Shown: positions 1 through 3,597, numbered from the stretch's first letter. The stretch: 35,494 nucleotides of DNA from a virus (IMGVR_UViG_2531839180_000004:1-35494), one strand, 5' to 3'. The notes: a model not told the origin generated them from the sequence alone. Made by a program: numbers and translations.

Positions 1-141
1 TTACTGCTTACACTGTAAGAACGCCGCAAACTCCGCTCCCCAGAAGCTCATCCGTATTTCACACAGCGAACCGTGCAACATCCAGATGATGAGGATTGCC
101 GTCACGCAGAACGTGATGGCCGTAAGCGATTTTTGCGACAT
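1..141 (-). CDS. Hok/Gef-family type I toxin (46 aa, single TM helix)
   Basis: Hand translation of the reverse complement of 1-141 gives MSQKSLTAITFCVTAILIIWMLHGSLCEIRMSFWGAEFAAFLQCKQ. It has a hydrophobic N-terminus plus LCEIR and EFAAF motifs like Hok LCE(V/L)R and E(V/L)AAF. Below the ORF-track length cutoff. Confidence 0.5.
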   Translation of the reverse strand: MSQKSLTAITFCVTAILIIWMLHGSLCEIRMSFWGAEFAAFLQCKQ

Positions 142-271
142 AGCACTTGCTCCTTTTCCGGAGAGGCGCTAACCTTTCACTTGTCAAGGTAATGCGGTTA
201 GGGCCTCGGTTAAACAGAGATGTTTTCCGGGGCCTTTCCACATCTGGCCTTCGGGTATTCCCTCCGACCAT
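59..271 (-). CDS. mok-like overlapping reading frame (70 aa) covering the hok start
   Basis: 70-codon ORF in another frame overlapping the hok-like gene, the same arrangement and size as mok of hok/sok loci. Could also be a spurious ORF. Confidence 0.3.
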   Translation of the reverse strand: MVGGNTRRPDVERPRKTSLFNRGPNRITLTSERLAPLRKRSKCYVAKIAYGHHVLRDGNPHHLDVARFAV

Positions 272-331
272 CAGCCGAAAGGCACCCGCGCGTAATCTAT
301 CGCTTTTTTGTTAATCCGGCAATTCTGCCTG

Positions 332-592
332 TTAGTTCTGAGGTAAAGGCAAACTCATCTGATTGTTTCCCCTGTGTGAAGCTGGCAGCTCATGCCACGG
401 GATACCTTCTGAAGAGTGAACGGCGGAGGCGTGTTTTGATGTGAATTTATGGAAGGCTTCCAGTGTTGAGAAGCATACGCCGCATTCCAGGTTGTTACAC
501 TGGTAATACTTTTGCCGCACGGTGTTTGAATCATTTTCCGGACGACTGGTGCGGATTCGGGCAGATGCGCCACAAAGCGGACAACGGAACAT
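332..592 (-). CDS. ogr: Ogr/Delta-type zinc-finger late-gene transcription activator
   Basis: Internal Met of ORF 332..652 gives MFRCPLCGASARIRTSR...YYQCNNLECGVCF, a C-x2-C...C-x4-C finger like P2 Ogr MFHCPLC...HQCQNVNCS. Start at 592 chosen by homology. Confidence 0.8.
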   Translation of the reverse strand: MFRCPLCGASARIRTSRPENDSNTVRQKYYQCNNLECGVCFSTLEAFHKFTSKHASAVHSSEGIPWHELPASHRGNNQMSLPLPQN

Positions 593-710: not shown

Positions 711-2147
711 ATGAGCACACATGAAATAGCTAGCACACAAGCACAAGGGCAACTCGTATCAACAGATTTCAATCGATTCGAGCAATTTTTGGAGTCGCTT
801 GGATTACCAAAAGAAAATGTTCTTGCTTCAACGATGGAGCGTCAGGTTGTCCAAACAAACTTTCCTCAGTTTGTGATGGCGTTACCAGAAGACGTTAAGC
901 GTGACTCTAGATATTTGTCCAAATTTGCAGCAGCAAGTGCTATTGGTTTGTTTGATGCTGCCTTGAATTATGTCTGGAACGAAGTTGTACTTAACTTACG
1001 AAGAAAGACAGTTATTTATGGTTTGGAACTTTTTTTTGATGCTGCCGTTGGTGGTAAACATAGAGATCTATTTAGTACTGAAAGTGACTTAAGTGGTATT
1101 AAAGATAAAGTTCTTCTTGATAATTGCGCTAAATTAGAATTGATCTCCGACTCAATTTATAAAAAACTCACCCATATTTTAATTATGCGCAATGATCTTG
1201 GTGCCAGTCATCCTAATGATGCGAAAATCAATGCTTATGAACTGATGGGGTGGTTGCAAACATGTGTTCAAGAAGTTATCAATGACACACCTTCAGAGGC
1301 TGCACTGCAAGTTAAGGCTTTTGTTGAGAATCTGCGAAATCAAACTGAAGTCATCAGTAGCTCTAGTTTGCAGCATATGAAAAATGGGCTCAAACAGCTA
1401 CACACAAGAAATTGTGATAATGTCCTTCAGACAATCTTCGGTATGTATATTGGTGCTGGTGCAAATAACATCCTTAAGAAAAATATATCTGAAATTGCTC
1501 CAACAGTTTGGGAATGTGCAGATAATAATATTAAATATAAACTAGGTGTTGCGCTTGATGGTTATCGAACCAACTTGCACAATGATAAATTTTTAGCAGG
1601 TAACGAGTTTTTCGAATTTTGCTCTGGTAATAAATTTAAAACCCTTGAGGCTAGGGTTATTCTGCTTGATGAATATCTGGATGATTTAAGTTCTGCTCAC
1701 AGCGGTTGGGATAATTTCTATAATGAAGTTCCTCATGCTAGGAAAATGTTAAGTTACATTTCCAATGAATCGGATATTCCTAATGAACGTAAAGAAAAAT
1801 TAATTCGTATAATTCTATCGTGTCGTATTGGTAATGGTGTTTCTTATAACACTGGTGTTTCTCCTTTAGGCAAACCCATATACGATTCAATATTGAATAT
1901 GCTGGGCGATGATAATATCGTTCAAGTTATCATTGCATTCTATAATCAAGAGATTTACCACTTATTATCTAACAAAAACTGTAGAAAACATGCTGTGCAA
2001 ATTCTAACGGATATAAGAACTAATGTTGTTAGTGATAAGCTCAAGCAAATCTTAGATTATCTGATTGTAAATGGTGATACTTTGGAAAAAACTATGAAAA
2101 CCACTGAATTTAAAGCTCTAGCATCAAGTCATATAAAATTTAGTTAA
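711..2147 (+). CDS. hypothetical 478-aa cargo protein, AT-rich, orphan; possible HEPN-like abortive-infection protein
   Basis: Long intact ORF with ATG at 711. Markedly AT-rich compared with the flanking phage genes. No Walker or other enzymatic motif seen except RNDLGASH (R-x6-H). Inserted between ogr and D, which are adjacent in P2. Confidence 0.8.
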   Translation: MSTHEIASTQAQGQLVSTDFNRFEQFLESLGLPKENVLASTMERQVVQTNFPQFVMALPEDVKRDSRYLSKFAAASAIGLFDAALNYVWNEVVLNLRRKTVIYGLELFFDAAVGGKHRDLFSTESDLSGIKDKVLLDNCAKLELISDSIYKKLTHILIMRNDLGASHPNDAKINAYELMGWLQTCVQEVINDTPSEAALQVKAFVENLRNQTEVISSSSLQHMKNGLKQLHTRNCDNVLQTIFGMYIGAGANNILKKNISEIAPTVWECADNNIKYKLGVALDGYRTNLHNDKFLAGNEFFEFCSGNKFKTLEARVILLDEYLDDLSSAHSGWDNFYNEVPHARKMLSYISNESDIPNERKEKLIRIILSCRIGNGVSYNTGVSPLGKPIYDSILNMLGDDNIVQVIIAFYNQEIYHLLSNKNCRKHAVQILTDIRTNVVSDKLKQILDYLIVNGDTLEKTMKTTEFKALASSHIKFS

Positions 2148-2330: not shown

Positions 2331-3440
2331 TCATTCTGTTTCTGCTATCCATTCCGGGATTTTTGCCTCAAGCTCAAGCTGCGTGGTAAAGCCGCTGTTA
2401 TCAATGGTGTGCTCAGCTTTTGCAATAATCCAGTCCTGATTATCAATCTCGCTTTTAAATCCTGTTACCGTGCCATGCATTTCGGGGTAGAGTTCTGCGC
2501 GTCCGCGTGCCAGTGTGATGGAGAATGATGCGGCTCCGCGTTGTAGCTGCTGCCACTTTGCCGCCGCTGCGCGTCTTGCTGCCTGCTCGTTCTGATAAGT
2601 CTTGCGTAACACAAACACATTGCCTTCCGCGCCTTCCATATAATCACCTTCACGGCTGCTGCTTTTCTCCTTTTTGGGTTTTGGCGGTTTACGGCGTTTC
2701 ACGCTGACTTTTTTCTTTTTCCCGTAATTAAGATCAAGCCAGTAGGCGCGTACCCCCGTATACGCCTCGCGGTCAGCAATGCGGAACTGATGGCGATCGC
2801 CGCTGCTGCGTGTAATGGCGAACGAGGGTAACGGCTGACCCTGTGCGTTCACGCCACCGCCGGGCATGATGAATAACAGATTGCCGCTTTTTACCGTGGC
2901 GATTGCGCCCAGCATTTCCGCCATGCGCGTAAGGAAGGACATGTCGCTTTCTTCGGTCTGGTCGGCGTGGTCGATTTCGATATCCATCAGCATTTCGCTG
3001 ATTTGCGGTTTCAGACCATACCGATGAGCGATGGCGGATACCACACGCTCAACGGTCACATCATGCCAGGACACCTCACGTTTAACGTTAAATTCATCCC
3101 GAAAATCTGCGCTTCTGGCTGAAACAGTCAGCCTGTCCGGCGGTCCTTCGTGAGCGATTTCATCAACAATGTAAGTGCCTTTTTCTGTCAGCGGTTCTCC
3201 TTTCCAGCCAATGAGAACCGTCAGGCGCGCGCCCCGTGGCGGTAGCTGCAACTGACCATCCGCATCATCCAGCGTGATGGTGAGCTGGTCCGCCTCAAAT
3301 CCCCGGTTGTCGGTCAGTGACAGGCTCATCAGGCGCTCTGCCACACCTGACAGCGTTTTACCCTCCGCGAGAATATCAAAATCCGGCATTTTCACGGGGT
3401 CTGTGCCCTGACTGAGCAATTGCATGGTGGTGTCGGTCAT
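2331..3440 (-). CDS. D: tail protein D (late control gene D family, baseplate hub/VgrG-like)
   Basis: 369 aa from the internal Met MTDTTMQLL, preceded by a GGGAGGGA Shine-Dalgarno. Size and sequence fit the Phage_GPD family; the ORF-track start at 3572 would leave only 25 bp to FI. Confidence 0.85.
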   Translation of the reverse strand: MTDTTMQLLSQGTDPVKMPDFDILAEGKTLSGVAERLMSLSLTDNRGFEADQLTITLDDADGQLQLPPRGARLTVLIGWKGEPLTEKGTYIVDEIAHEGPPDRLTVSARSADFRDEFNVKREVSWHDVTVERVVSAIAHRYGLKPQISEMLMDIEIDHADQTEESDMSFLTRMAEMLGAIATVKSGNLLFIMPGGGVNAQGQPLPSFAITRSSGDRHQFRIADREAYTGVRAYWLDLNYGKKKKVSVKRRKPPKPKKEKSSSREGDYMEGAEGNVFVLRKTYQNEQAARRAAAAKWQQLQRGAASFSITLARGRAELYPEMHGTVTGFKSEIDNQDWIIAKAEHTIDNSGFTTQLELEAKIPEWIAETE

Positions 3441-3496
3441 CTGCTCCCTCCCTGTGCGGCATGGTCGCATGTGCGTGCGGAGGGGGTTACTGCTTT

Positions 3497-3520
3497 TTGT
3501 TGTCGCCTGGTCGGGAGAAC
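3497..3520. promoter_or_regulatory. candidate late-promoter activator site (TTGTTGT-N12-AGAAC) in the D/FI divergent region
   Basis: Motif centred about 55-60 bp upstream of the expected FI transcript start. A near-identical motif occurs between O and P at 20405-20429. Confidence 0.3.
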
Positions 3521-3597
3521 GGCGCAGGGGTGAGATTACGCGCGTGGTGGGTGATGATTGTTGCCGAATCATTTAACGGATACAAGGGGCTGAAGCT

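Follow-up and report, generated by a model that had tools for sequence, protein, structure and literature searches.

The window considered here is a stretch of 35,494 nucleotides of viral DNA (IMGVR_UViG_2531839180_000004:1-35494), and its first 331 bases carry a small toxin locus. A hok-family toxin gene encoding 46 amino acids runs on the minus strand from 141 to 1, with its ATG at 141-139 and its TAA stop at 3-1 (PGAP, Pfam). The upstream neighbour is ogr, a late-gene activator on the same strand (332..592; Pfam Ogr_Delta 52.5 bits; PGAP). Around the toxin gene are found the larger part of an mRNA of the hok type (1..287, minus strand), a predicted hok promoter and, on the plus strand, a predicted antisense RNA of the Sok type. 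A sequence-only reading of the region had proposed a hok/mok-type type I toxin locus abutting ogr. The module is genuine and intact, and that reading was right on all points except mok.

The toxin gene and its peptide

Translation of the minus-strand ORF 141..1 yields MSQKSLTAITFCVTAILIIWMLHGSLCEIRMSFWGAEFAAFLQCKQ, bases 3..1 being the TAA stop. The motifs LCEIR and EFAAF are both found in the 46-residue peptide, and residues 7-22 form its hydrophobic N-terminal stretch. Pfam HOK_GEF (PF01848) matches residues 7-44 with 29.9 bits against a cut-off of 22 (E 4.1e-7), and PHROG 251 is matched with an E-value of 1.3e-22. The residues conserved to more than 80% in the Hok logo (M1, C16, T18, L30, C31, E32 and E41) are present without exception (7/7) and stand at M1, C12, T14, L26, C27, E28 and E37 of the window peptide. 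By these sequence measures, the toxin ORF is far beyond chance. Its coordinates, motifs and Pfam match all agree with the Hok-like reverse-strand ORF of 46 aa, ending at bases 1-3, that had been described before. The alignment to the Hok family, then suggested as a check, gave a Pfam score above the cut-off and 39% identity to R1 Hok over the SLCEIR...AAF core.

The peptide is listed by RefSeq/PGAP as Hok/Gef family protein WP_000078916.1. The NCBIfam Hok models were not reached (34 bits against 89 for HokA, 21.6 against 73 for the Hok family model), and none of the PADLOC models matched the toxin. Since the peptide falls below the NCBIfam Hok cut-offs and the PGAP name derives from the Pfam domain only, it represents a divergent subfamily.

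The locus is of a known kind, and its sequence has already been catalogued. In a recent preprint, 44,248 Hok homologues were collected and hok genes were found to be enriched in prophages (Escalera-Maurer et al. 2026, bioRxiv 10.1101/2025.08.07.668861). The window peptide is, residue for residue, entry 72_1621 of that catalogue; 72_1589 is the variant of Stx phages, and their cluster 72 is of high abundance. Both entries belong to the set that was assayed for toxicity (Table S2), in which 42 of 45 peptides were toxic and the three non-toxic ones carry other identifiers. Sok, mok and mRNA structure were explicitly left unanalysed there (Escalera-Maurer et al. 2026, bioRxiv 10.1101/2025.08.07.668861). 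The catalogue and the present analysis deal with the same peptides; what the present work adds is the anatomy of the RNAs, the lack of mok and the position between ogr and attR. A literature search returned nothing specific on a hok gene beside ogr in P2-like phages, nor on MokW-like/WP_000078916 proteins. Only the absence of mok and a hypervariable recognition patch, both described below, go beyond the literature found.

Most chromosomal hok loci of E. coli K-12 are inactive relics, and the locus might likewise be a relic hitch-hiking on its prophage. Several prophage copies are indeed rearranged remnants, e.g., those of STEC1585 and O55:H7 CB9615, and the scores against curated Hok and Sok models are low. 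Yet the toxin ORF is intact in 34 of 34 variants examined, and the best 80 of 254 matches in IMG/VR all encode the identical peptide. The identical protein was found on more than 1000 contigs. Moreover, the synonymous sites of the last 13 hok codons are almost invariant, which is consistent with a constraint at the RNA level. The module is also carried by inducible phage genomes, and the identical peptide was reported to be toxic when expressed (bioRxiv 10.1101/2025.08.07.668861). With these observations against it, decay into a relic is very improbable.

The hok mRNA

The predicted mRNA has a length of about 410 nt, and its last 122 nt or so would lie to the left of base 1. This part was read in the genome of E. 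coli STEC1585 (locus L001, in which window position x corresponds to 6000+x). STEC1585 shows 100% identity to the window over bases 1-710 and agrees with it at 2325 of the first 2330 bases. The leftward extension that had been recommended thus leads into identical E. coli DNA, which holds the remainder of the hok-type mRNA. Past the hok stop, the minus strand carries a GC hairpin (L001 5992-5969), then the element AAGGCACCC (L001 5942-5934) and then an intrinsic terminator, CCCGCAG-N8-CTGCGGG followed by UUUUCUUUUU (L001 5914-5887). The 5' end, placed by the start of the Rfam model and by the 3' complement, carries the 'tac'-like sequence GGGUGCCUU (279..287, minus strand). Element AAGGCACCC is the exact complement of GGGUGCCUU (287-279) and is situated 58-66 nt outside the window; by a rough estimate, a 9-nt match within about 120 nt is expected some 5e-4 times by chance. 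The fold-back part at the 3' end had been expected to lie outside the window, and the 3' element and terminator are in fact located 58-113 nt left of base 1.

For folding, the full transcript was taken as L001 6287-5878. Its predicted energy is -178.1 kcal/mol, versus -131.6 ± 5.2 in shuffled sequences (z = -9.0). In the minimum-energy fold, the 5' 15 nt close onto the 3' element, and RNAalifold predicted the same closure of the 5' and 3' ends from 30 distinct homologues. The pairing between GGGUGCCUU and AAGGCACCC is 100% paired in the 30 sequences, the only changes being from G-C to G-U. A helix of 14 pairs, also predicted by RNAalifold, joins the hok start region to the 3' portion of the coding sequence. 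Over the 115 consensus pairs and 30 homologues, 98.4% of cells are paired. Changes on both sides of a pair amount to 14, against 3.1 ± 1.4 in shuffles (0/500 reach 14) and 3-6 in slid controls, the consensus structure being scored on the same alignment of closely related sequences that yielded it.

The Shine-Dalgarno sequence of hok, AGGAG (150..154, minus strand), stands 8 nt before the ATG and is predicted to be held in a CUCC/GGAG hairpin. This hairpin occurs in the minimum-energy folds and in the consensus (columns 129-132 with 141-144 of alignment A3, 97.5% paired). Taken together, the predicted closure of the two ends, the helix at the start region and the masked Shine-Dalgarno sequence would resemble an inert storage form of the mRNA. 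The hok mRNA of plasmid R1 has a tac/ucb switch. When the 3' element was removed in silico, the 5' end of the window mRNA refolded onto nt 19-35, and this modelled local refolding of the 3'-trimmed mRNA resembles the switch of R1. The hok Shine-Dalgarno sequence is still masked in the predicted 3'-trimmed fold.

Transcription would start at about 287 from a promoter predicted from the sequence at 294..322 on the minus strand (-35 TTGCCG at 322-317, 17-nt spacer, -10 TAGATT at 299-294). A -10-like hexamer (TAGATT, TAGATA or TAAATT) is retained in homologous loci where the upstream context differs.

Rfam family RF01794 ("sok") matches the minus strand of the window at 287-128 with 48.4 bits, below the gathering score of 59 (E 1.7e-9). 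The control loci scored 87 bits (R1-type plasmid locus), 118 bits (K-12 hokC) and 113.5 bits (hokW). In these controls, the match was always on the hok strand and ended at the hok AUG. Therefore, RF01794 describes the hok leader and not Sok itself, and a minus-strand match is what is due from the leader of a hok mRNA. Relatives of the window locus scored 30.9-53.5 bits; since all members stay below the threshold, they form a divergent branch.

Absence of mok

In the control loci, mok is read in frame with hok from an ATG at -57. The controls with this arrangement (3/3) are K-12 mokC, the R1-type plasmid locus with the R1 Hok peptide and mokW. As K-12 mokC and hokC share their stop codon, mok is an in-frame extension of hok. 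No such in-frame mok is present in the window family: in 34 of 34 loci, a stop codon occurs 15-36 nt before the hok ATG, with no start codon between them. In the window, the hok frame is closed 27 nt before the ATG by a UAG (171-169, minus strand) which overlaps the predicted Sok -10 box. The same TAG, formed by the complement of that box, closes the frame in 31 of the 34 loci, and the other three are closed 15-36 nt upstream.

A frame of 70 codons overlapping hok (271..59, minus strand) had earlier been said to mimic mok. If so, the locus would be a canonical hok/mok/sok system, with this ORF coupled to hok and blocked by Sok. The ORF does exist, has an ATG, overlaps the hok start and has about the length of the Mok proteins of R1 and K-12. 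However, it lies in another frame than hok, whereas true mok genes are in frame at -57. It has no Pfam match and is probably not a gene. Moreover, it starts 16 nt from the 5' end of the mRNA, has no Shine-Dalgarno sequence and lies outside the predicted contact with Sok. Of 33 loci compared, no more than 12 share it; 7 more use a different ATG that opens another register, and 13 lack any start codon in the two frames that overlap hok out of register. The loci in which it is absent or differently phased (21/33) include the copies of phage P88 and of Stx phages. No out-of-frame ORF of this kind was found in the R1-type control. The canonical reading is thus left with hardly any probability, and by sequence comparison the window family conserves no mok, whatever its kind.

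Further short frames were considered as substitutes and rejected. A leader ORF of three codons, GUG-AAA/AUA-GGU-UAG (180-169), is without a Shine-Dalgarno sequence, and its GUG is replaced by GUA in the Stx-phage copies and by GUC in those of E. albertii. A second upstream AUG stands at mRNA nt 45, but indels in the hairpin loop shift its register, and no more than 7 of 33 loci have an overlapping frame that begins there.

The predicted Sok antisense RNA

Homology and conservation point to a Sok-like promoter on the plus strand at 147..175 (-35 TTGCTC at 147-152, 17-nt spacer, -10 TAACCT at 170-175). The antisense RNA itself, of about 60 nt, is predicted at ~183-243 by alignment to the annotated sokC of K-12 (start 183/185). 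It would have a single-stranded 5' tail, a long hairpin (200-209 with 227-236) and a short tail containing U, with a predicted energy of -26 kcal/mol (z = -4.1) and the same architecture as the R1-type Sok control. Pairing is predicted 42-100 nt upstream of the hok AUG, at nt 45-105 of the leader. Within this region, the target of the 5' tail would be mRNA nt 91-104 (184..197, minus strand), which was delimited by a peak of entropy.

The -10 hexamer TAACCT (mRNA nt 113-118) is invariant in 30 of 30 distinct homologues, and the -35 hexamer, which overlaps the hok Shine-Dalgarno sequence, is invariant or at least 90% conserved. This conservation can also be explained by the Shine-Dalgarno sequence and the RNA structure. 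Consequently, hok might be controlled by folding and processing of its mRNA alone, with no functional antisense RNA and with the Sok features being the complement of leader structure. The overlap of the -35 box with the Shine-Dalgarno sequence would agree with this, as would the fact that the hok leader likewise has a hairpin at the position of the Sok hairpin. The loss of mok removes the classical target of Sok. The hexamers of the predicted hok and Sok promoters are weak as well, with 6-7 of 12 positions of the sigma-70 consensus; both fall under the threshold of a generic consensus scan, which called no promoter over the locus. However, the promoter of R1 Sok is equally weak by consensus and was missed in the R1-type control too, so that the negative scan is uninformative.

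Several observations speak for a functional antisense RNA. The hokW-sokW locus has TTGCCT-17-TAACCT at the homologous place, i.e., the same -10 hexamer and spacing, with the exact sokW -10 position inferred from the sequence. Mutations in the sokW promoter abolish antitoxin activity (Takada et al. 2021, PMC8621323). In addition, the AGGU complementary to the -10 box is invariant although it is unpaired in the consensus fold. Entropy over the 30-sequence alignment peaks at mRNA nt 91-104, with 0.75 bits per column, while most of the remaining alignment has 0.03-0.4. Variability in the module is thus greatest in the partner of the predicted Sok 5' tail (window 197-184), as expected under diversifying pressure on pairing specificity, and such a hypervariable patch would fit lineage-specific antisense recognition. 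In view of this, control by mRNA folding alone is unlikely, and a Sok-type antisense RNA is the preferred reading.

An antisense RNA had been anticipated on the plus strand within about 150-330, and the predicted promoter at 147-175 and predicted RNA at ~183-243 answer to it. Combined with the toxin match and the hok-type features of the mRNA, this Sok-like unit argues for a type I toxin locus of the hok/sok type, as had been suggested.

Prophage context

Base 1 of the window is also the terminal base of dozens of IMG/VR provirus contigs, and the opposite end (35494) is the last base of the integrase ORF. The exact coincidence of the toxin stop with base 1 reflects the trimming of this provirus call at gene boundaries. 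The element is inserted between ihfA and btuC. A 25-bp att core, AAAGAAAAAAGGCCGCAGAGCGGCC, is found at both ends of the element in E. coli STEC388, which is 99.9% identical to the window over 2.5 kb at the integrase side. In K-12 the core occurs as a single copy and forms the stem of the ihfA terminator. The hok-side copy (attR) is located at L001 5715-5739. Since this is about 260 bp beyond the hok stop, the hok transcription unit is prophage cargo between ogr and attR and not host DNA. The choice between a prophage and a host origin, for which a search for the att core had been advised, is thereby settled in favour of the prophage, the core flanking the element on both sides and occurring once in K-12.

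The true prophage is larger than the window. In STEC388, a 399-bp hypothetical gene and a DUF1640 gene (L005 1498-2566) precede attL beside btuC. Between ogr and gpD, the window contains an ORF of 478 aa (711-2147, plus strand) with a GC content of 35%, compared to 52% for the window. Its sole match is PHROG 27609 (function unknown, E 1.9e-200), and none was obtained with Pfam, NCBIfam or PADLOC. In O55:H7 CB9615, the corresponding slot is filled by a different gene of 666 bp. The slot at 711-2147 looks like a variable cargo slot, and its occupant in the window is a possible defence gene. The gpD gene of the window is a full ORF of 413 aa (2331-3572). In STEC1585 (L001 8331-9184) and O55:H7 CB9615 (L002 5602-6455), gpD is truncated (801 bp, annotated as VgrG/Pvc8) and followed by a tail sheath gene on the opposite strand. 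The copies in these two strains are rearranged prophage remnants, in which the hok module is still intact.

Distribution

The first 710 bases of the window have matches in 1553 of 5426 complete E. coli genomes (~29%), and the hok-ogr pair is nearly complete in 1158 of the 5426 (21%). In sequenced phages of the P88/Xuanwuvirus group, hok and ogr occur together at 91-97% identity; the module is present in the genomes of phages P88, 500465-2 and PhiR44_2. In the Stx phages 933W and VT2-Sakai, the hok module stands by itself beside lom, with an identity of 83%. Comparison of 33 distinct loci showed that homology extends from the -10 of the hok promoter to just past the 3' complement, while the flanks differ. 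On this sequence evidence, the locus is a portable module of about 0.4 kb.

A profile built from a 3-sequence alignment was run against 185,579 species genomes and found 7 loci, in Escherichia, Salmonella and Citrobacter and in assemblies assigned to Planococcaceae, Vagococcus and Xanthomonas. The hok loci of the Planococcaceae, Vagococcus and Xanthomonas pisi assemblies (L009, L010 and L013) are near-identical to the E. coli type, and some stand on very short contigs; these are probably contamination and not real hosts. In Salmonella enterica subsp. diarizonae, a match to the sRNA STnc540 (L014 1009-1195, minus strand; 185.7 bits) lies about 300 bp from a cluster-72 hok gene and is overlapped by a weak match to STnc320.

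Comparison with known systems

The window locus shares several features with the R1 hok/mok/sok system (parB). In both, a small Hok with an SLCEIR core is encoded by an mRNA of about 400 nt, whose 5' end would, by the predicted folds, pair with a 3' element shortly upstream of the terminator. R1 also has a cis-antisense RNA of about 60 nt, which consists of a 5' tail and a hairpin and has its promoter over the hok Shine-Dalgarno sequence; the RNA predicted in the window matches it. The geometry is also alike, with Sok starting 40-50 nt upstream of the hok ATG. In contrast to R1, the window locus has no mok and is carried by a phage instead of a plasmid. The Hok peptides are 39% identical over 31 aa; the window peptide has 46 aa and ends in QCKQ, whereas R1 Hok has the tail AYES. 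The Rfam score is 48 bits in the window, compared to 87 bits for the R1-type plasmid locus.

The hokW-sokW locus of the Stx2 prophage Sp5/933W is likewise phage-borne, belongs to the Hok family and has the inferred -10 TAACCT with the 17-nt spacing. For this locus, an antitoxin RNA and a contribution to lysis upon induction were demonstrated (Takada et al. 2021, PMC8621323). By analogy, the function of hokW-sokW is a plausible model for the window locus. Nevertheless, HokW has 51 aa, is of the HokD type and belongs to cluster 35, unlike the window peptide of cluster 72 (bioRxiv 10.1101/2025.08.07.668861). HokW is the one Hok of phage origin known to be characterised. Furthermore, mokW is read in frame with hokW from -57, and the locus exceeds the Rfam threshold with 113.5 bits. 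Two hok-family loci are present in Sp5/933W, namely hokW-sokW with mokW and an uncharacterised, mok-less cluster-72 locus beside lom. The latter is the true homologue of the window locus and lies about 13 kb from hokW in VT2-Sakai, where the two loci are found at L003 1433-1789 and L097 603-927 (AP000363, ~44.4-44.8 kb and ~57.5-57.8 kb).

As for K-12 hokC/mokC/sokC, window 183-243 can be aligned with the annotated sokC, and the alignment covers the GGCCUCGG...CGGGGC hairpin. This system differs in its in-frame mokC, which is 57 nt longer than hokC, in its Rfam score of 118 bits and in its chromosomal position directly adjoining IS186.

Proposed mode of action and significance

The first 331 bases of the window and about 120 nt to their left are best regarded as a self-contained, mok-less type I module of the hok/sok family, carried as cargo between ogr and attR of a P2-like prophage (Peduoviridae; P88/Xuanwuvirus type). 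We give this reading a probability of roughly 80%.

Following the R1 and hokW paradigms, slow trimming of the hok mRNA from its 3' end would strip the 3' element, upon which the 5' end would fold locally and the leader would become accessible. A constitutive Sok of about 60 nt, transcribed from the plus strand at ~183-243, would pair with leader nt 45-105 and keep the toxin off as long as the prophage is present and transcribed. Should Sok synthesis stop, the stable hok mRNA would outlast Sok, and Hok would permeabilise the inner membrane. This might be triggered when the element is lost, when another phage shuts off the host or when the prophage is induced. The hok/sok system of R1 is reported to exclude other phages. 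By analogy with the known systems, the module is likely to serve prophage retention, to help lysis as hokW does or to exclude phages as R1 hok/sok does.

Without mok, the established pathway of hok repression by Sok is lost. Sok could then not work by blocking the translation of a coupled upstream ORF; instead, it would have to work through duplex-triggered cleavage or decay, or by keeping the leader folded such that the Shine-Dalgarno sequence is masked. A wider proposal concerns cluster 72 as a whole and is put forward tentatively, as a possibility with somewhat less than even chances. According to this proposal, the cluster is a natural mok-less hok/sok, in which the Sok -10 (CTAACCT) supplies the in-frame UAG and Sok exerts its control without coupling. 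The patch of about 14 nt would diversify by phage lineage, so that co-resident P2-like and Stx prophages keep private antitoxins.

From a biological point of view, the locus is routine, as the enrichment of hok in prophages is known and the peptide is already part of a catalogue and of its toxicity assays. The point for specialists is that a phage-borne Hok cluster of such abundance has no mok. Owing to its abundance, the mok-less cluster offers a convenient natural test of whether Sok-type RNAs can control hok when translation is not coupled. It might further reveal how cross-talk is avoided between paralogous modules of the same cell.

Consequences for annotation

The first 331 bases should be annotated as a phage-borne module of the hok/sok type that was cut at a gene boundary by the provirus call. 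The RNA partner of the window hok is missed at the Rfam threshold. RefSeq phage records name the cluster-72 locus beside lom 'MokW-like host killing', which is misleading. Automatic annotation of hok and mok is inconsistent in plasmids, too. For instance, on the IncFII plasmid pMTY1886 (L008 445-503), PGAP calls the R1-type Hok as a CDS of 102 bp (558-659), while the full Hok ORF of 52 aa begins at 501 and is preceded by the in-frame mok ATG at 444.
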